The notes below the pieces were generated by a model. That model was given only the letters and a program-made list of their open reading frames with translations, searched no databases and was not told the origin of the DNA. From Alphaproteobacteria bacterium (GTDB taxonomy: Bacteria; Pseudomonadota; Alphaproteobacteria; UBA7887), in the NCBI GenBank assembly GCA_965201155.1, contig OZ241752.1:719047-783046 (forward strand): a DNA stretch of 64,000 nucleotides. The letters are read 5' to 3'. The position numbers and the translations under genes are program-made. Positions 2,777 through 46,948 of this stretch are shown here, piece after piece. The number at the start of each line of letters is the position of its first letter. Within the stretch, counting starts at the first letter, position 1.

Positions 2777-3601
2777 CTAGCCGAAGCGACCGGTGATGTA
2801 GTCCTGCGTTCGCTGTTGTCCGGGATTGGTGAAAATCAACTCGGTATCGTCAAATTCCACGAGCTCGCCAAGATGAAAAAACGCTGTGCGCTGGGACACG
2901 CGAGCCGCCTGCTGCATGTTATGGGTGACGATGACAATGGTGTAATGCGACCGCAGATCGTCGATCAGCTCCTCGATCCTGGCGGTGGCGATGGGGTCGA
3001 GCGCCGAGCAGGGTTCGTCCATCAGAATCACTTCCGGATTGATGGCGATGGCGCGCGCGATGCAGAGGCGCTGTTGCTGGCCGCCGGAAATGCCGGTGCC
3101 AGGCTGGTGCAGGCGGTCGCTGACTTCCTCCCACAAGCCGGCGCGGCGCAGGCTGGTCTCGACAATTTCATCCATTTCAGCACGGGTGGGGGCGAGACCG
3201 TGAATACGCGGTCCGTAGGCGATGTTTTCGTAGATCGACTTGGGAAACGGGTTCGGCTTCTGAAATACCATGCCGACACGCGTGCGAAGCTGCACCACGT
3301 CAACGCTGCGCGCGTAGATGTCGGCCCCGTCGAGCAGGATGTCGCCGGTCACGCGGCACGCTGCAATGGTGTCGTTCATGCGGTTGATGCAGCGAAGAAA
3401 GGTGGATTTGCCGCAGCCCGAAGGGCCGATGAATGCCGTGACTTCGTTTTCGGCGATGTCGATGGCGACGCCCTTGATCGCATGCGTTTCGCCGTAGAAG
3501 ACATCGACATTCCGGGCGGTGATCTTGGCGCGCGATTGCGGGCGGCCATTGCGCGATACGGTCATCTCTACCATCGCCGTTCGAATTTTCTGCGCAGCCA
3601 T
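2777..3601 (-). CDS. pstB: phosphate ABC transporter ATP-binding protein PstB
   Basis: Walker [10 protein letters not shown], signature LSGGQQQR and Walker B ILMDEP. Carries the PstB-type N-terminal extension. Confidence 0.95.
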
Positions 3602-4881
3602 ACGGCCGTCGCGTTCATGCAGATGAGGAAGCCGAGAAGCACCATGATCGCGGCAGCAGTGCGTTCGGCAAACGCGCGTTCGGGGCTGTCGGCCCAGATG
3701 AAGATTTGCACCGGCAACACGGTGGCCGAGTCGAGGGGGCCGGACGGCACATCGGCGATGAAAGCGACCATGCCAATCATCAACAGCGGCGCGGTTTCGC
3801 CAAGCGCCTGCGCCGCACCGATGATGGAGCCGGTGAGCACGCCCGGCAAGGCCAGCGGCATGACATGGTGCATGACAACCTGCATGTGCGAGGCGCCCAC
3901 GCCAAGCGCGGCCTCGCGGATCGACGGCGGCACAGCCTGCAAGGCGGCGCGCGTGGCGATGATGACGGTCGGCAAGGTCATCAACGCCAGCACCATGCCG
4001 CCGACAAGCGGCGCGGAGCGCGGCATGCCGAAGAAATTGAGGAAGACCGCGAGGCCCAGCAGCCCGAACACAATGGACGGAACGGCCGCCAGATTGTTGA
4101 TGTTGACCTCGATCAGGTCGGTCCAGCGGCTCTTGGGGGCAAATTCCTCAAGATATATGGAGGCGAGTACGCCCACCGGGACGCTGATGAGAAGGCAGAT
4201 CAACAGTGTCCAGAACGACCCGACGGCGGCGCCCCGGATTCCCGCAAGCTCCGGCTCGCGCGAATCGGCGGCGGTGAAAAAGCGCGTGTTGAAGCGTTTT
4301 TTCACGCGGCCCTCGGCCGCCAGCGCATCGATCCAGCCAAGCTGGCTGTCGCTGACCGGGCGCAGGCGCTCCTCGATTTCGCGGGAGAACCGCCCCTTGA
4401 TCAACATGTCCACATCGTCGGAGGCGAGCAGCACCACCTCCTGCCGCGCGCCGATGAGAGACGGGTCCGCCAGTACCATGTCGCGCAGCAACAGGTCATT
4501 GCCGGAACTCATGATGCGGGACAGCGCGCGCCGGTCGCGCCGGGACTGTACTTCGGGGAAGCGCTCATAGAGCGCGCCGTGCACCAGGGCGGTGAAATTG
4601 GCGCGGCGGATAACGGCCGGATCGCCGCTGCCGGCGGGGTCGATCACCGCGGCCTCGAAAGTGATGGGCAGGGTGATGGTGGTCTGTTGAAACGCAGACC
4701 AGCCCTTGAGGACGATGCTGCCGAGCAGTGTCGCGAGAATCGCGAGGGCAAGGATGATGGCCAGCACGCCGACGGCGCGAAACCGGCGTTCCGAAGCGTG
4801 CCGCCGGCGCAGGCGTGCATCTTCGGAAATGCGGGACTCATTGCCGGCCGTATGACCGGTCGGTTGGACGAGGTCAGCCAT
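3568..4881 (-). CDS. pstA: phosphate ABC transporter permease PstA
   Basis: Polytopic membrane protein. Position between pstC and pstB. Confidence 0.9.

Positions 4882-38679: not shown

Positions 38680-38709
<30 letters not shown>
37762..38709 (+). CDS. periplasmic binding protein, probably ABC type 2 (iron-siderophore/cobalamin-like), orphan
   Basis: 315 aa with a PBP-like two-lobe pattern. No cognate permease or ATPase is nearby. The 3' end overlaps tRNA-Arg on the opposite strand by about 30 nt, so the true stop is uncertain. Confidence 0.45.
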
Positions 38710-38756
<47 letters not shown>

Positions 38757-38805: not shown

Positions 38806-41140
38806 TCAGTCGGCGCCGGCAGCGACCTTGCCACTGTCCCCGTCGGCGCTGTCCGCATCGTCGGGCGGCGGGTCCGCTGGGGTGATATCGAACGCAGCCT
38901 TTCCTTCCTCGACGCGCACCTTCACATGGCCGCCCTGTGTCAGGCTGCCGAACAACAGGGCTTCGGCCAGGGGCTTCTTGATGTGCTCCTGAATGACGCG
39001 CGCCAGGGGGCGTGCGCCGTACAGCCTGTCATAGCCCTTTTCCGCAAGCCAGCGGCGCGCATCGTCGGTGAGTTCGATAGTGACGGCGCGGTCGGCCAGC
39101 TGGGCCTCAAGCTGGACAATGAACTTGTCGACCACGCGATGCACGATTTCCGGCGGCAGATTGGAAAAGCCGATAATCGCGTCGAGCCGGTTGCGGAACT
39201 CCGGTGTGAACATCCGGTCGATGACTTCGCGGTCATCGCCGGTGCGCGCCTCGCGTCCAAAGCCGATTGCCGGCTTGGCAAGTTCGGACGCGCCGGCATT
39301 GGTCGTCATGATGAGGATGACATTGCGGAAATCCACCGATTTTCCGTTGTGGTCGGTGAGCTTTCCGTGGTCCATCACCTGCAGGAGTATGTTGAACAGG
39401 TCGGGATGCGCCTTTTCGATTTCATCGAGCAGGAGCACAGCGTGCGGGTGCTGGTCGATGGCGTCGGTGAGGAGCCCGCCCTGATCGAAGCCGACATAGC
39501 CCGGCGGCGCGCCAATGAGCCGCGAAACAGTATGGCGCTCCATATATTCGGACATGTCGAAGCGGGTGAGTTCAATCCCCATGATCGCAGCGAGTTGGCG
39601 TGCGACTTCCGTCTTGCCGACACCCGTGGGGCCGGAAAACAGGTAGTTGCCGATCGGCTTTTCCGGTTCGCGCAAGCCGGCGCGGGCCAGCTTGATGGCG
39701 CCGGTAAGCGTCTCGATGGCTGAATCCTGCCCGAACACGACGGTTTTCAGACTGGTTTCCAGCGAAGAAAGCATGGCCTTGTCGTCACGGCTGACGCTCT
39801 TCGGGGGAATGCGGGCGATCTTCGCGACGATGCGTTCGATTTCATCTTCGTTGATGGTGGTCTTGCGGCGGTCTTCGGGCAGCAATACCTGGGCAGCGCC
39901 GACTTCGTCGATGACATCGATCGCCTTGTCGGGCAATTTCCGGTCGCCGATATAACGCGCCGACAGCTTGACCGCGGAACGCAGGGCGTCGTCGGTATAT
40001 TCCACCCGGTGATATTCCTCGTAATAGGGCTTGAGGCCCTCGAGAATCTTCACGGCATCGTCGATGGACGGCTCGTCTATGTCGATTTTCTGGAAGCGGC
40101 GAACGAGCGCGCGGTCTTTTTCGAAGTAGTTTCGATATTCCTTGTATGTGGTCGACCCCATGCAGCGCAGGCTGCCGTTTTGCAGGGCGGGCTTGAGCAG
40201 ATTGGAAGCGTCCATGGCGCCGCCGGAGGTGGCGCCCGCGCCGATCACCGTGTGAATTTCATCGACGAACAGGATGGCGCCGTCATGCTGTTCCAGTTCG
40301 GCGAGCACGGCCTTCACTCGCTCCTCGAAATCGCCGCGATAGCGTGTGCCGGCAAGCAGCGAACGAACCCATGTCGAGGGCAAATATGACAGCGTTGTCG
40401 AGGACATCCGGCACTTCGCCGTCAACGATGCGCTTGGCGAGACCTTCGGCAATGGCAGTCTTGCCAACCCCCGGGTCGCCGACAAACAGCGGATTGTTCT
40501 TGGTGCGCCGGCATAATATCTGCACCGTGCGCTCCACTTCGTCGCCGCGGCCGATAAGCGGATCGATGCGCCCGTCGCGTGCTTTCTGGTTGAGGTCGAC
40601 GCAATAGGCTTCGAGGGCCGCCTGCCCCTGCTTGGCGTTTTTCTCGTCCTCCTGTTCGGCGCCTTCCTTGTTGGCGCCTGAAGGGGTGCGCGAGTCGGAC
40701 ATGCCGGGCCGCTTGGCGACGCCGTGGCTGATATAGCTCACGGCATCGAGCCGGGTCATGTCCTGCTGCTGCATGAAATACACGGCGTGCGATTCGCGTT
40801 CCGAGAAGATCGCGACAAGCACATTGGCGCCTGTAACTTCCTGGCGGCCGGAGTTCTGCACATGGTGCACTGCGCGCTGGATGACCCGCTGGAAACTTGC
40901 GGTGGGGCGGGCATCGGAGGTCGGTTCGGGAAGCAGGACCGACCCGTCCTCATCGAGAAAATCCTCAAGAGCGGCGCGCAACTTGTCGATGTCGACATTG
41001 CAGGCGCGCAATACGGCGACCGAGTCCTGATCTTCGGTGAGCGACAGCAGCAGATGTTCGAGCGTTGCGAACTCGTGCCCGCGCGCATTGGCGTGAGCAA
41101 GTGCGCGATGCAGCGATTCTTCCAGCGTTTTGGACAACAT
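38806..41140 (-). pseudogene. clpA: ATP-dependent Clp protease ATP-binding subunit ClpA, interrupted by a +4 frameshift (tandem TTCG duplication at about 40360-40367)
   Basis: Two ORFs (40283..41140 N-terminal, 38806..40485 C-terminal) together encode a complete ClpA: N-domain, AAA+ D1 with [10 protein letters not shown]2 with GPTGVGKTE. On the coding strand the junction reads ggTTCGTTCGctg, which breaks the conserved [18 protein letters not shown]. Confidence 0.6.
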
Positions 41141-41156: not shown

Positions 41157-41486
41157 TCAATCTTTTTCGAGCGTGCACTGAAGCGGATGCTGGTTCTGCT
41201 TCGCGAAATCCATCACCTGCGTCACCTTGCTTTCAGCAACTTCATAGGAATATACGCCGCAGATGCCGACACCGCGCCGGTGCACATGCAGCATGATGCG
41301 GGTTGCCTCCTCGCGCGACTTGCGAAAAAACCGCTCCAGCACGTACACGACGAACTCCATGGGCGTGTAGTCGTCATTGAGTAGCAACACCTTGTACATA
41401 GAGGGTTTCTTGGTGCGAGGCTTGGTTCGCGTCACGGTGCCCACATGGAGGCCGCCGCCGTCGCGATCGTCGTCGTCGTCCGCCAT
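41157..41486 (-). CDS. clpS: ATP-dependent Clp protease adaptor ClpS
   Basis: 109 aa. Acidic N-terminus (MADDDDD) followed by the ClpS core [24 protein letters not shown]. Immediately upstream of clpA. Confidence 0.9.
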
Positions 41487-41955
41487 TGCGGTGCGCCGTC
41501 GGGCTGGAAGGGGGTGAGGCATCGCTATCACACCCTCAAGACGGCCTCTCGTCTGACGGACTGCCGCGTCCTGCATCTCTGCGCTGCCTCTCTGCCGGCA
41601 CGGTCGGTTGCCTGTCATGATAGCCCATTCCCGCCCGCCGCATAACCCGCGCCTTGCGGCGCGCCAAGTCCACAGGAAGCGGGATTTGCGAGCGTGCCGG
41701 CTGTCGTCGCACGAAGCCACCTAAATTCCGGTAATGCATCGGGGCGCGAGAGACGAGCCATACAGGCTACACAACGGCCAGTTAGTGCTATAGGCCTTCC
41801 GCCATTCCGTGGCCCGGTTCCGGGTACTCGCATTACCAATGCGCCGACCGACCGAACGCTGGTCACATAACCGCATTCATCTTCCGATGGTTTGAACGAT
41901 CAGCAAGCAAGAGCGAAGCGTTCCTAGATGGGAGGTTCACATACCTCAAATTCAC

Positions 41956-42149
41956 TCAACGATCAGCCAAACGTCGCAATTCAGCTTGATACCGAGATAT
42001 CAAGACATTGATCGGCTCCGCGCGCTTAAAGAATGTTTGAGAGTCAACACCGTCCTCGGCGGTCAGTTTCGCAGCATTTCTTATCGTTTTGATAGCCCCT
42101 TTTCCCACTTGATTAGTCCAGTTTGGGAAACCCACCTGCGCGACCTTAA
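41956..42149 (-). pseudogene. Fic/Doc-family protein, displaced 3' portion (last 63 codons)
   Basis: Removing the IS and one TTAA copy joins ...EEVGVK to VAQVGFPNW... in a single frame, giving a 296-aa ORF that ends at 41956. Confidence 0.7.
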
Positions 42150-43432
42150 GGGAGGCTCTCAAAATCGCCTACTTTTCTCATTTATGTTGTATAATCCGGG
42201 TTGTTGTCTCGGGAGGCGGATTTGATGGGCATGCCGGGTTTTTTCGATCTTGAAGAACGGTTCGCAAAGCTTGACGGATTGGGCGATCCGTTGGCGAAGC
42301 TGTCCGGTTCTGTGAACTGGGAAGGGTTTCGCCCGGCGCTGGACGCGGCACTGTCGAAGCCGCGCAAGAGCAATGCCGGTCGCAGGGAATACGACCGGGT
42401 TCTCATGTTCCGGGTTCTGGTCTTGCAGCAAATGTACAACCTGAGCGACGACCAGACAGAGTTCCAGATCCGGGACCGCTATTCGTTCGCCCGGTTCCTG
42501 GGGCTGCATCCCGAGGATACGGTGCCCGATGCAAAGACCATCTGGCGGTTTCGGGAGAACCTGAAACTCGCGGAGGCGTTTGACAGCCTGTTTTCGGAAC
42601 TGTCCTCGCAGATCGAGGACCAGGGCTATGTGGCGCGCAGGGGACAGATCGTGGATGCGAGCTTTGTGAAGGCGCCGCGTCAACGCAACAGCCGCGACGA
42701 GAACGCACAGGTGAAGGCGGGGAAGGTTCCGTCCGAATGGTCGCAGAAGAAGCGTCGTCACAAGGACACCGACGCACGCTGGACGCGCAAGAGAAATGAA
42801 ACCCATTACGGATACAAGAACCACATCAGCGTGGACCGTGCGTATCGTCTTGTCCGTCGCTGGGAGGCGAGCGATGCGGCGTGTCACGACAGCAAGATGT
42901 TCGAACAGGTGCTTGATGAGACGAATACCAGTGGCGCTGTCTGGGCCGACAGTGCCTACAGCAGTCGCCACCATGAGGCGTTGCTGGCCGAACGAGGCTG
43001 GCGCAGCCACATTCACCGCAAGGGGCATCGCAACCGCCCCTTGCCTGTGCGCTCCCAGGAAGCCAACCGCAAGCGTTCGAAGGTGCGCGCGGTCGTCGAA
43101 CATGTCTTTGCTCAACACGAAGCGATGGGCGGCAAGCGGGTCAGGACTATCGGCATGGTCCGGGCACGCTTCAAGATCGGCATGATGAACCTGGTGTACA
43201 ACCTGCGCCGGCTTGTCTGGCTGCGGGCGAACCACCGGCCCCTCTGCTGCGACAGGGTTCAATAGAATGCCGAACACGGGGGGCCTATGTGCCCTGTGAA
43301 CCGTTTCAGGCTCTCCAACCGCTGTCGGGAACCGTTTTCCCCACCTGATCCGTAGTTCCACCGACTCTTTCATCCCCACAAAACCGACAAATCAACCAAG
43401 GAAAACAAGAAATCAAATTACGAGAGCCTCCC
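42150..43432 (+). mobile_element. IS5-family insertion sequence (about 1283 bp) with terminal inverted repeats GGGAGGCTCTC and a 4-bp TTAA target-site duplication
   Basis: Left end GGGAGGCTCTC at 42150-42160, right end GAGAGCCTCCC at 43422-43432. Flanking direct repeats TTAA at 42146-42149 and 43433-43436, consistent with IS5 insertion into YTAR targets. A single transposase ORF lies inside. Confidence 0.85.
42201..43265 (+). CDS. IS5-family DDE transposase
   Basis: 354-aa ORF with an N-terminal DUF772-like region (FRVLVLQQMYNLSDDQTE) and a DDE domain. The likely start is MGMPGFF at 42225. Confidence 0.85.
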   Translation: MLSREADLMGMPGFFDLEERFAKLDGLGDPLAKLSGSVNWEGFRPALDAALSKPRKSNAGRREYDRVLMFRVLVLQQMYNLSDDQTEFQIRDRYSFARFLGLHPEDTVPDAKTIWRFRENLKLAEAFDSLFSELSSQIEDQGYVARRGQIVDASFVKAPRQRNSRDENAQVKAGKVPSEWSQKKRRHKDTDARWTRKRNETHYGYKNHISVDRAYRLVRRWEASDAACHDSKMFEQVLDETNTSGAVWADSAYSSRHHEALLAERGWRSHIHRKGHRNRPLPVRSQEANRKRSKVRAVVEHVFAQHEAMGGKRVRTIGMVRARFKIGMMNLVYNLRRLVWLRANHRPLCCDRVQ

Positions 43433-44133
43433 TTAACACCAACTTCTTCCTTTTCACCCAATATACCAAACACTTTTCGCCGTTCTTCTATTCGCACCAG
43501 ATCAATTGTATTTCCTCTAGGATTTTGAAGATCATAGCCGAACGAGTTCAATATAGTTTTTAGTTCTCTAAAAGTGACCGTGTAGTATTTTTTATCTAAC
43601 TTTCGCGTATGCTTTTTCAAGAAATAGGATATATAATTGACTTGAGCATCAGCTTTATCTGAGCACTTTCGCTCTAATTCTTGATAACGCCTGGATTTAC
43701 GGAAATTACCTTTGGCCACATCTACCGCAAAATCCTCTAACTCTCTGTGGCCTATTATCGGAACTAAGTTTAACTTTTGAAGATGATAAACTAACGACAA
43801 AAAAGCCGTTCTCTTGTTAGCGTCGTAAAATGGATGATCTTTAATCAAACCAAAAAATAACGTTGCGCAGATATCCCAATTGGACTCCCATTTTCGTCTT
43901 CCGGCGAACATAACATGTTGACGATGAAGTGCAGAATGAAGAAGATTCATGTCCTTGGGTCCGATACCGCCCAGCCCACGTCCTCGAGCAAAGAAGTGAT
44001 CAGCAATCAAGTAGTGCGCTTTTAGCACATCCTTTATTCCAAGATAACCCGGCCCAGAATAGGGATCTTCATCGTCGAGTGATGCCAAAGATGATTGATA
44101 GGATATCCGAATTGGCTCAGCTAAGTACTGCAC
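43433..44133 (-). pseudogene. Fic/Doc (Fido)-family protein, 5' portion (codons 1 to about 233), truncated by the IS5 insertion
   Basis: Doc-type active-site motif HPFYDANKR (HxFx[D/N][A/G]NKR). About 45% GC, against about 65% for the window. The frame continues into the IS end. Confidence 0.75.
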
Positions 44134-44222
44134 GCTGTCTCTTCCCTCATTCTCGTACCAACCGGCTAGGCGGTGAATTCAACCGCAAGCGCAATAATCT
44201 GGGGGCCTTCGTCGAGTTGTCT

Positions 44223-44558
44223 TCAGGGTGATGCGGTGTGCAGCAATCGCCGCATGGCCGTGTCAAAGCTGTAGACGCCACCCAGCGATTCACTGGAGTG
44301 CGATGCGGCGCGCAATGCCTTGAACACGATCAGCGCATCGGTGAAGTCGGTCCCATCTGCCGGCACGGCATTCCGGTACGCTTGCAGGGCGTGCCACACA
44401 ACCTGTTCATCCTCGAAACGAATATTGGTGTCGTTGAACAGCCCTTCAAGAACCCTCACAAGTTCTGCTTTGGTCAGCCGATATTTGCGCCCGGCGAGAG
44501 TCCATACAGCTTCCGCCAGCACAACATCGGTGATCACCACGGTCCCTGCAGCATCCAT
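44223..44558 (-). CDS. PIN-domain (VapC-like) toxin
   Basis: 111 aa with PIN acidic residues: N-terminal VVITDVV (first Asp), middle RFEDEQ, and C-terminal DFTDALIV plus FDTA. 89 bp upstream of the Fic/Doc gene on the same strand. Confidence 0.65.
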   Translation of the reverse strand: MDAAGTVVITDVVLAEAVWTLAGRKYRLTKAELVRVLEGLFNDTNIRFEDEQVVWHALQAYRNAVPADGTDFTDALIVFKALRAASHSSESLGGVYSFDTAMRRLLHTASP

Positions 44559-45162
44559 GACAGAGTCCGCACGCGCCGCCTGAGCCTCGTCATCATGCAG
44601 CAGTTAGCGGAGCAGAACATTGCTATCCACGACGATCAAGGCGTCGACCCGTCAAGAGCATCCTGCGAGGAATCCTCGTCGGCAATTGCAGTGTCGCCGG
44701 CTATGTTCCGAAGGATCCCCTTGGCCGCGCCGGCAGTCTTCGGCACAATGGTAATTCGACCTTCGGCGACAAAGCTGCGGTATTCGCTCCCCGGCTCGAT
44801 CCCGACTTCCCTGTACTGATTGATGGGGGGAGGGTGATCTGGCGTTTTGCGCGCGCTCGCGGCATCGGATGGTCCTTCCCGGCATGGCGGGCTCGGGTTT
44901 GCAATGCCATTTTCTTTACCATTCCCCAAATTGCCGCGAGGCCAGTCCGCCCCGGCGAAACAGCACAATCGCGCATAGCACGCCGGATTGGCGGCCTTGC
45001 CGGGGTCGGGAGAGAGGCGCTGGGAAAACAGGCGGCGGCCCTGCGCCGGGGAGATGCATAAAGTATTGAAAGAATGAACTGTTTCGGACGGTATGTCGGG
45101 CGGGGATTTTGTGCTTGTCAGGTTTTGAATTTCATGATAGCCTAGTGTCAGAACTTCACGGG

Positions 45163-45196
45163 GCCTCTTCACGGGGCCTCTTCACGTATTAAGAGT
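45163..45196 (+). repeat. tandem 13-bp direct repeat (CTTCACGGGGCCT, 2.5 copies) in the 5' leader of the lipoprotein gene
   Basis: The sequence reads cttcacggggcctcttcacggggcctcttcacg. An imperfect hairpin agaggcctcgtaagaggtctct follows at 45207-45228. Confidence 0.8.
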
Positions 45197-45262
45197 AGAG
45201 GCCTCGTAAGAGGTCTCTCACTGGAGGCTCCCCAACCGAATCATTATGGGGGTCCTCCATCA

Positions 45263-46948
45263 ATGACACTTCCAAGAAGCTCTCTCGCGGTCATGTTGGC
45301 CGCGCTTGTTGCGGCGGGCTGCAGCGATAGTGATAGCTCGCCCCCTGCCATGCCACAAACTCCGCCTGAAACGCCTGCACCGACGGTCCATAACCTGGAA
45401 CTCCCGGCGGGCGACCTTGGCTCGCTTGCCGCCGGTATGCTGATGCTTGGCGCTGGCGATACCGCAACCCGCGGCAATGTCGAGTTTTCGTGCCCTGCCG
45501 GTGGAGATGCGTGCAGTATCGAAGTCATGGACAGTGTCGGCACGCTGACAGCGCAGTCGACCGGCGGCATGGCGACGGCCATGATGGTCGAGATGCTGGA
45601 AGATCCGATGCCGACGGTCCATATGCTGGAACTCCCGGCCGGCGACCTCGGCTCGCTTGGCGCCGGTATGCTGATGCTTGGCGCCGGCGATACCGCAACC
45701 CGCGGCAATGTCGAGTTTTCGTGCCCTGCCGGTGGAGATGCGTGCAGTATCGAAGTCACGGACAGCCTCGGCACGCTGACAGCGAAGTCGACCGGCGGCA
45801 TGGCGACGGCCATGATGGTCGAGATGCATGTTGACCCGGATCCGGCGGTCCATAGCGTCATGCTGCCGAGCGGCGCCAAGGCCGGCGGCCTCTCCGCAGG
45901 CAACACCATGGTCACCGCCGGCGCCAGCAGGATGGTCGGCAATTTCGTTTTCACCTGCGCCGCCGGCGCGATGGATTGTAACATTGAAGTGTATGAGAAC
46001 CTCGGAGTTCTCATGGCCAAATCAACCGGCGGCATGGCAACGGTGATACCGTTGTCGATGTACCTGCCGGGCGATACGCCCACATCTCCGGCCACGGCCT
46101 TCGGTTTCCTCAATGACGAGATGCTGCCTGATATCTCGATGTGGAAGATGGACGGCGGCAAGTTGGTGAAGCCGATGACCAAGAAGGAGGCTTTTGCAGC
46201 GGCGATTACGGGCGCCAACGATACAACCACCGGGGTTATGTCTCACATAGAGCTCGACAATGGAAGTCGTGTCGGCGTTAGTGGATTTTCCATGGTAGGA
46301 GATGGCAAAGGCATGGAATATAGCCAGCTAGCCATGGCCGGAGGTTATCTACGTGGCGACACAACGGCAGATTCCTCAGACCTTGGTGGGTTCGACGGAT
46401 ATAGCCTGATGGGTGCCCTGACCACTGGCGCGGACAGAAGTTGGACCGCTGAGGCGCTGGTTTTCTCGGACGGGGCTGAGGACGGAGCCACAAACTTCGG
46501 CATCTGGGCTGCTGATTTTGGAGATGTCCACAGTGCTGACCTCATGAGGGTGGGCGTGTTTGCTCAACTGCCGAGCATGGCCGGGAGTAGCTTTGCGGAT
46601 GATGTTTTAGGCGGCATGGCCACCTACTCCGGTGGAGCCGCTGGCTTTATCGCCGGCAACGACATGAATGATGTCTGGACAGGCGTGGTCGACCTGAATG
46701 CCAATTTCACGCAGGGAAATGAAACTATCGGCGGCATGATCAGAAGTGGCAGCATCCCGACCATTACACTTAGCCCCCAACGCGTTGACGCCATCTCGAC
46801 CATGATGAAAGGTCGCGCGTTGGCCAAAGTGGCGGGTGCGCCGGAAGGAAGATGGAACTGGGCCTTCAGCGATGACGCAGGGCAAGTCGGCGGCACGGTT
46901 GATGTATCCAACATCATCGGTGCTTTCGGCGCGCACCGGAACTACTAG
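45263..46948 (+). CDS. surface lipoprotein with three N-terminal 77-aa Cys-pair modules (two near-identical) and a TbpB/fHbp-like C-terminal beta-barrel domain. Methionine-rich.
   Basis: Signal peptide plus lipobox LVAAGC. Modules carry FSCPAGGDACSIEV and a recurring STGGMATAMMVEM motif. C-terminal pattern GGMATYSGGAAGFIA...VWTGVVDLNANFTQGN.TIGGMI...GRWNWAFS...VGGTVDV.NIIGAFGA matches lipoprotein 8-strand barrel handles. Confidence 0.8.
   Translation: MTLPRSSLAVMLAALVAAGCSDSDSSPPAMPQTPPETPAPTVHNLELPAGDLGSLAAGMLMLGAGDTATRGNVEFSCPAGGDACSIEVMDSVGTLTAQSTGGMATAMMVEMLEDPMPTVHMLELPAGDLGSLGAGMLMLGAGDTATRGNVEFSCPAGGDACSIEVTDSLGTLTAKSTGGMATAMMVEMHVDPDPAVHSVMLPSGAKAGGLSAGNTMVTAGASRMVGNFVFTCAAGAMDCNIEVYENLGVLMAKSTGGMATVIPLSMYLPGDTPTSPATAFGFLNDEMLPDISMWKMDGGKLVKPMTKKEAFAAAITGANDTTTGVMSHIELDNGSRVGVSGFSMVGDGKGMEYSQLAMAGGYLRGDTTADSSDLGGFDGYSLMGALTTGADRSWTAEALVFSDGAEDGATNFGIWAADFGDVHSADLMRVGVFAQLPSMAGSSFADDVLGGMATYSGGAAGFIAGNDMNDVWTGVVDLNANFTQGNETIGGMIRSGSIPTITLSPQRVDAISTMMKGRALAKVAGAPEGRWNWAFSDDAGQVGGTVDVSNIIGAFGAHRNY
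45380..45841 (+). repeat. tandem direct repeat of 2 x 231 bp, about 94% identical, within the lipoprotein coding sequence
   Basis: Copy 1 spans 45380-45610 and copy 2 spans 45611-45841. Both begin ccgacggtccat and both contain ...ggcaatgtcgagttttcgtgccctgccggtggagatgcgtgcagtatcgaagtc... Confidence 0.9.

Follow-up and report, generated by a model that had tools for sequence, protein, structure and literature searches.

An IS5-family insertion at a TTAA site in a Doc-type gene of an alphaproteobacterial genome

P1 Doc phosphorylates EF-Tu and is active as a protein of 126 amino acids (aa). In a 64-kb stretch of DNA from an alphaproteobacterium (contig OZ241752.1 of GCA_965201155.1; the whole stretch, positions 1-64,000, is referred to as the window), we analysed a longer, Doc-type relative of this enzyme whose gene is interrupted at 42150..43432 by an insertion sequence (IS) of the IS5 family. 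IS5 duplicates 4 bp at the target 5'-YTAR-3', TTAA included (PMC5009759), and IS insertions have been found to interrupt accessory genes, for example the cas genes (PMC10359306). Our analysis makes it very probable that IS5-type DDE transposition into a TTAA site of a foreign Doc-type gene took place here; loss of the normal function of the gene would be its most likely consequence.

The IS5-family element

The initial annotation had described the span of the element, its terminal inverted repeats and the TTAA duplications on both sides of it. All of them were found again by inspection of the sequence and by a script check, and the parts of the element are as follows.

42150..43432 (+): complete IS5-family IS of 1283 bp, 58.8% GC, with its transposase gene on the strand opposite to the interrupted gene
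42150..42165: left terminal inverted repeat, GGGAGGCTCTCAAAAT, its first 11 bp perfect, 14/16 matching the right end
43417..43432: right terminal inverted repeat, ATTACGAGAGCCTCCC, of the top inverted-repeat pair of 41400-45300
42146..42149: left TTAA target-site duplication, 4 bp, directly outside the IS end
43433..43436: right TTAA target-site duplication, 4 bp, one of the four YTAR sequences of IS5 (PMC5009759)
42225..43265 (+): DDE transposase gene, 346 aa from the ATG at 42225; the alternative TTG at 42201 would give 354 aa

The 11-mer GGGAGGCTCTC at 42150-42160 is repeated as its exact reverse complement, GAGAGCCTCCC, at 43422-43432. Each of the two occurred once in the window, with about 0.03 occurrences expected by chance (11-mer, 128 kb on two strands), and in the scan of 41400-45300 this pair was the best inverted repeat, its arms agreeing at 14/16 positions over 16 bp. 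Furthermore, a second copy of the IS was found at 2926-4208 of an ENA metagenome contig (ERZ25068762:ctg108981_3x_l; locus L001), with 1 mismatch in 1283 positions (99.92% identity). Because this copy aligned end-to-end, from the first base to the last, it fixed the ends of the IS independently. It was flanked by ...ATCA and TTAT..., showing no direct repeat at its ends, which may be due to a chimeric assembly at low coverage, to a deletion next to the IS or to recombination between two copies of it. A gene pair encoding a HigB-like toxin and a helix-turn-helix antitoxin adjoins that copy. Within the element of the window, an antisense open reading frame (ORF) of 406 aa at 42159-43379 (-) spans nearly the whole IS opposite to the transposase gene. 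This ORF is most likely no gene but a GC-rich shadow ORF. In a promoter and terminator scan of 41700-45300, sites were no commoner than in shuffled sequence, so there was no evidence for an outward promoter borne by the IS.

The assignment to the IS5 family, which was also part of the initial annotation, was borne out. The transposase matched the NCBIfam model NF033581 "IS5 family transposase" with 273.5 bits (E = 2e-81, profile positions 2-284/285), well above the cut-off of 140 bits, and gave Pfam matches to DUF772 and DDE_Tnp_1. The same model was the best one for InsH of E. coli K-12 IS5A (366 bits), to which the transposase was 27% identical over 278 aa in a BLASTP alignment (E = 1e-21), and TTAA fits the YTAR target of IS5 (PMC5009759). 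The element thus agrees with the IS5 group in every criterion that could be tested, i.e., transposase, inverted repeats, single ORF and YTAR duplication.

The exact 346-aa transposase was present in the protein database, where its 90%-identity cluster held nine distinct sequences, eight of them on one contig of 2,926,781 bp. Two of these eight were fragments of 68 and 277 aa, which may represent one frameshifted copy. Judging from these deposited proteins, the source genome has multiple copies of the IS. The element is apparently transposition-competent, and the presence of several near-identical copies in one genome suggests indirectly that it may still be active. A search of a plasmid collection returned only distant IS5-family relatives, with about 63-65% nucleotide identity at best, and the left-end 30-mer of the IS had 0 matches in 185,579 species-representative genomes. 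In the JGI metagenomes, an IS-end 20-mer had four matches, none of them with this IS or its transposase, and these were dismissed as chance or unrelated. Apparently it is a distinct IS and not a known one, seen so far in the source genome and on the one ENA metagenome contig only.

The interrupted gene and its protein family

The gene hit by the IS is read from the minus strand and now lies in two parts.

43437..44133 (-): 5' part of the Doc-family gene, GTG start at 44133, codons 1-233, holding the whole Fic/Doc catalytic domain; 40.5% GC
41956..42149 (-): 3' part of the Doc-family gene, codons 234-296 and the stop at 41956-41958, ending in ...RLADR; 48.5% GC

As the initial annotation had proposed, excision restores the frame: removal of 42150-43436 in silico yielded an ORF of 891 nt on the minus strand, which starts with the GTG at 44133, stops at 41956-41958 and encodes 296 aa (...GEKEEVGVK/VAQVGFPNWTNQ...RLADR, with the junction marked by the slash). 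Codon 233 (AAG) reads through the TTAA, and a Shine-Dalgarno-like sequence, GAGGGAAGAG, is located upstream of the GTG. In its present state the ORF occupies 43306-44133. The 233 native codons that the initial annotation had left on the promoter side are followed by 42 codons encoded by the IS, giving a product of 275 aa with its stop at 43306, and this hybrid was already deposited in the protein database as P0001, encoded on the same NCBI/ENA contig of 2,926,781 bp as the eight transposase sequences.

Homologues of the restored protein were searched among 5.8 billion protein clusters at E <= 1e-5, which returned 589 matches. The top match was P0001, i.e., the interrupted 275-aa ORF itself, and the next ones were intact proteins, many of exactly 296 aa, with 100% query coverage and at most 69% identity. 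In an alignment of 14 sequences, the junction ...VGVK/VAQVGFPNW... was colinear and ungapped, and both the N-termini and the C-terminal LADR coincided; P0002, for example, reads VGVKVAQVGFPSW at the junction. Relatives that match across the junction, whose absence would have refuted the initial annotation, were thus found as full-length proteins of 296 aa. The same alignment placed the invariant residues G239, F240, P241, W243, V247, R256, L261, G266, D268 and S269 in the 3' fragment. In a larger alignment of 117 family members, the restored protein retained all invariant residues and was off-consensus at 3 of the 68 columns with at least 90% conservation (family mean 2.0, standard deviation 1.75); 34 of 116 family members had as many or more departures. 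Because these departures are within the spread of the family, there was no sign of gene decay before or since the insertion.

These results bear on the suggestion that the gene was already a dead pseudogene, or that a repeated IS was mis-joined during assembly. The source contig is derived from a metagenome, several neighbouring genes have frameshifts or a stop codon, and the L001 copy without duplication comes from a contig tagged "3x" (taken as about 3x coverage) that may be a chimera. However, a mis-join would not yield a precise 4-bp duplication together with complete inverted repeats and an exactly restorable frame, and a dead gene does not fit a restored ORF that is free of stops and frameshifts, is normally conserved and whose joined halves are colinear with the 296-aa homologues. 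Both forms of this suggestion are therefore highly improbable.

The Fic/Doc membership stated initially held and could be refined to a Doc-type protein with an additional C-terminal domain. The restored protein matched the Pfam family Fic (PF02661, 39.7 bits, match 31-118) and TIGR01550 "death-on-curing family toxin" (42.1 bits, with the cut-off at 38.65; match 86-143). Its active-site motif is H100-PFYDANKRT, in which H100, D104, K107, R108 and T109 were invariant in the 117 family members. This is the Doc variant (HxFx(D/N)(A/G)NKR type) and not the AMPylating Fic variant; by analogy with P1 Doc, the restored protein may catalyse phosphotransfer, with a putative EF-Tu kinase activity as judged by its motif. 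Among the sequences of the PDB, P1 Doc was matched best (E = 7.7e-7), covering only about positions 45-147. An AlphaFold (AF2) model built from the 117 sequences (pLDDT 86.8, pTM 0.78) showed a helical Doc domain, for which 3K33 of P1 Doc was the best structural match (TM-score 0.78, normalised to Doc). In the model, this domain is followed by a helix (188-196), three strands (200-206, 209-221 and 225-239), a second helix (249-258) and a helical tail.

The family consists of proteins of about 295 aa which share the conserved C-terminal domain (residues ~176-296) and end in ...RLAxR. When the C-terminal part was modelled alone (pLDDT 83.9), an alpha-beta-beta-beta-alpha arrangement was obtained, whose one good match in the PDB was 1WHZ/TTHA1913 (Foldseek probability 0.98, TM-score 0.64 normalised to the target, with a marginal E = 0.06). 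1WHZ has a YcfA-like double-stranded RNA-binding domain fold and is the closest structural relative of HicA (PMC3969222). With hhalign, the domain was aligned with E. coli HicA (sequence checked against 6HPB) from helix 1 to strand 2 at 34% identity, again with a marginal E = 0.056, and Pfam at E <= 10 and a PDB profile search of the domain gave nothing meaningful. The loop at the catalytic position of HicA reads P-R-G-N-T, in which N208 is nearly invariant and no His is present. With moderate confidence, we regard the domain as probably YcfA/HicA-like and non-catalytic; if it is related to HicA, its role is probably one of binding rather than of RNase activity.

Seven homologue loci (L002-L008) were compared for their gene context. 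The neighbour was a DUF3644 gene in L002; an S24 repressor-like gene and a D12 methyltransferase gene, next to phage capsid genes, were found in L003; in L004 the Doc-family gene was directly downstream of a Type ISP restriction enzyme gene; and L005 to L008 had housekeeping genes as neighbours. No conserved small ORF was found up- or downstream of the Doc-family gene in these seven loci, whose neighbours all differed. In the window, the Doc gene has a disabled PIN toxin gene, and no antitoxin gene, as its upstream neighbour at a distance of 89 bp. The family is one of stand-alone Doc-type proteins. The label "type II TA system toxin" (TA, toxin-antitoxin) carried by its members finds no support in the gene context. 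A canonical type II phd-doc module was rejected for the locus, since no antitoxin adjoins the gene and 296 aa are encoded compared with about 125 aa for a Doc-only toxin. The idea of a mainly phage-borne family was likewise given up, as only one relative was found in 2.9 million viral contigs, and membership in a defence system was not accepted, with only weak Fic-domain matches to the PADLOC candidates PDC-S23, PDC-S04 and PDC-S05.

Taken together, it is possible, and we propose it only tentatively, that a Doc-type kinase domain, a catalytically dead HicA/YcfA-like domain and the RLAxR tail form a large, uncharacterised and antitoxin-less "long Doc" class, in which the extra domain targets the enzyme (e.g., to RNA or the ribosome) or restrains it in cis in place of an antitoxin. 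Such a restraint can be likened to the inhibitory helix that is built into class II and class III Fic proteins. The last residues of the family tail also resemble the extreme C-terminus of the Phd antitoxin (...ELVNR). If the proposal is true, what the IS has cut off is precisely the module for regulation or targeting.

Target sites, course and consequence of the insertion

The composition of the Doc gene (40.5% GC in its 5' part and 48.5% in its 3' part vs 63.9% for the window) marks it as foreign, in line with horizontal acquisition. In the window after excision of the IS, only eight TTAA sites were counted, of which four were in the 891-bp Doc gene, i.e., in 1.4% of the length, and 16 of the 47 YTAR sites were inside the gene as well. 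Per kb, this amounts to a 36- to 69-fold enrichment in the Doc gene (69-fold for TTAA), the density of TTAA outside of it being 0.065 sites per kb. Because the rare target sequence is concentrated there, the Doc gene was the likeliest landing site of the region. The availability of targets alone probably explains the hit, with no need of selection or of a special function of the gene. A sequence-specific IS in a GC-rich genome would in this manner be steered into AT-rich, recently acquired DNA, and such steering by TTAA could work as a passive filter against newly acquired genes.

A different view would be that the insertion was selected, since it knocked out a harmful stand-alone Doc-type enzyme and so disarmed a toxin adaptively. 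It is consistent with this view that the gene is foreign by GC, that its Doc motif is intact with no recognisable antitoxin adjoining here or in the seven homologue loci, and that the neighbouring VapC-like PIN gene is also disabled, by an in-frame TAA. However, the half of the window's TTAA sites that lie in the Doc gene suffice to explain the hit. The relatives of the gene are also widespread as intact single genes (589 matches), indicating that they are not generally lethal without a partner, the catalytic domain was spared, which is odd for the disarming of a toxin, and the non-toxin gene clpA is broken nearby too, which points to general gene decay. We therefore consider adaptive disarmament unlikely.

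On the preferred explanation by target-directed transposition, the course of events would have been as follows. An IS5-group element would have inserted by the DDE mechanism at a TTAA in the AT-rich acquired gene, and its transposition would have duplicated the 4-bp target. The gene would until then have encoded a 296-aa stand-alone Doc-type enzyme of Fic fold with the kinase-type motif HxFxDANKR. The insertion, at codon 233/234, splits the third strand (E225-239) of the modelled C-terminal domain in its middle. The ORF still linked to the promoter now encodes a 275-aa hybrid which keeps the catalytic domain, has lost the last 63 conserved residues and has gained 42 residues encoded by the IS, and the 63 codons at the 3' side are detached from promoter and start codon. 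Apart from the active site, conservation in the family is highest in a block encoded by these lost codons (GFPxW, V247, R256, L261, G266, D268, S269 and the RLAxR tail). In view of the model, normal function would most likely be lost through a misfolded half-domain.

The initial annotation had spoken of a clean, recent insertional inactivation. That it is clean can be retained from the duplication and the exact frame; recency and inactivation are what we infer, the catalytic domain being still present. An intact duplication, perfect terminal 11-mers, undecayed gene halves and a second IS copy with a single mismatch in 1283 positions all suggest that the insertion was recent.

Several points weigh against the explanation given above. 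The restored-junction 31-mer had no match in the JGI metagenomes and no intact protein of more than 69% identity was present in the protein database, so the state before the insertion was reconstructed and not observed as an uninterrupted allele. Since the L001 copy has no direct repeat, the preference for TTAA is drawn from one insertion together with the knowledge of the family. Finally, the truncated product could retain activity, because the whole catalytic domain is kept and P1 Doc is active at 126 aa.

From the last point it may be argued that the gene was not inactivated at all, and that the 275-aa hybrid keeps Doc activity with changed regulation or targeting, or is even de-repressed if the tail is auto-inhibitory. 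Residues 1-233 do contain the complete Fic/Doc domain, P1 Doc (124-126 aa) spans only the catalytic region, and the start codon and the upstream region are intact. On the other hand, the 63 residues lost include GFPxW, the DS pair and the RLAxR tail; the cut is in the middle of a beta-strand, and a half-domain with a foreign tail of 42 aa would likely be misfolded and degraded. Furthermore, a de-repressed toxin would be counter-selected, yet the allele is the one in the assembled consensus genome. Retained activity thus appears quite unlikely, and the loss of normal function is still the preferred outcome.

Neighbouring genes and comparison with known systems

The VapC-like PIN gene upstream of the Doc gene (44223-44648, -) has an in-frame TAA at 44604-44606, at about codon 15. 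When the stop was read through, the Pfam PIN match reached 39.3 bits (profile 1-104) vs a partial match of 21 bits, below the cut-off. This TAA thus disables a second toxin gene within a short distance. An AbrB/MazE-type antitoxin gene has left remains at ~44636-44870 (-), which are located upstream of the PIN gene and overlap with its start. They can be read only by a frame change near a C-run (ATCACCCTCCCCCCATCAATC), where either a genuine frameshift or a sequencing error in the homopolymer may be present, and the MazE_antitoxin match after repair was weak (16.6 bits, E = 0.008).

On the other side, a +1 frameshift at ~40363-40370 divides clpA (38806-41140, -) into two ORFs that overlap. The lesion reads ATGGGTTCGTTCGCTGCTTGCC, an apparent tandem duplication of TTCG, and the removal of four bases restores the conserved reading. 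The full-length ClpA of Roseomonas matched the window with its aa 1-284 in frame -1 and with its aa 268-760 in frame -2, and the ClpA fragment was 69-79% identical to ClpA of many Alphaproteobacteria, Rhodospirillales, Acetobacteraceae and Hyphomicrobiales included. None of the species representatives matched by this fragment was close, so the source is an alphaproteobacterium that lacks a near relative in this reference set. Either the lesion is an assembly error or clpA, which encodes a protease chaperone and is normally conserved, has become a true pseudogene. A tRNA-Arg(CCG) gene at 38680-38756 (-) is directly downstream of clpA and about 3.2 kb from the Doc gene. Neither an integrase gene nor an att-like repeat was found to link it to the AT-rich Doc gene, and the repeat scan of 41400-45300 gave no convincing island-marking repeats flanking the latter. 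Further away, a gene at 45263-46948 (+) encodes a predicted lipoprotein of 561 aa with a signal peptide ending in ...LVAAGC and no Pfam match. It contains a 231-bp tandem repeat at 45380-45827 (1.9 copies, 95% identity), corresponding to a Cys-containing module of about 77 aa, and a more diverged third copy seems to come next.

The event is an IS knock-out of the ordinary kind, and the IS responsible is a new member of a group that is well known. Insertions of IS into accessory genes are routine, and the event itself is of little weight. It is mildly unusual in the funnelling of target sites into AT-rich foreign DNA and in the under-described architecture of the gene that was hit. For annotation it is a clean case, as the deposited 275-aa "Fic" ORF is a hybrid pseudogene. 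Moreover, the label "type II TA death-on-curing toxin" on at least 589 family members may mislead, given their extra domain and the lack of an antitoxin partner.

The insertion resembles IS hits reported in costly or toxic accessory genes, such as cas (PMC10359306), in that an acquired accessory gene was interrupted with a clean duplication; it is different in that nothing here shows selection for the knock-out. The interrupted protein shares the Fic fold and the HxFxDANKRT motif with P1 Doc (PDB 3K33, 3DD7). However, it has 296 aa compared with 126 aa, being extended at the N-terminus and carrying a further domain of about 120 aa at the C-terminus, and unlike the P1 phd-doc module, neither this gene nor its homologues are adjoined by a gene for Phd or another antitoxin. 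The predicted alpha-beta3-alpha fold of the C-terminal domain may correspond to that of HicA/YcfA-like proteins (1WHZ; HicA 6HPB), from which the domain differs by a long hairpin insertion and an extra helical tail, and where HicA has its catalytic Gly-Ser-His loop (PMC3969222), G-N-T is found here. As for the element, although InsH and its transposase are only 27% identical, it is built like IS5 of E. coli. Both have a single DDE transposase with DUF772 and DDE_Tnp_1 and are of similar length (1195 bp in IS5 and 1283 bp here), both have ends of about 16 bp that start with GGxAGG (GGAAGG in IS5, GGAAGGTGCGAA; GGGAGG here), and the 4-bp YTAR duplication of IS5 (PMC5009759) is represented here by TTAA.

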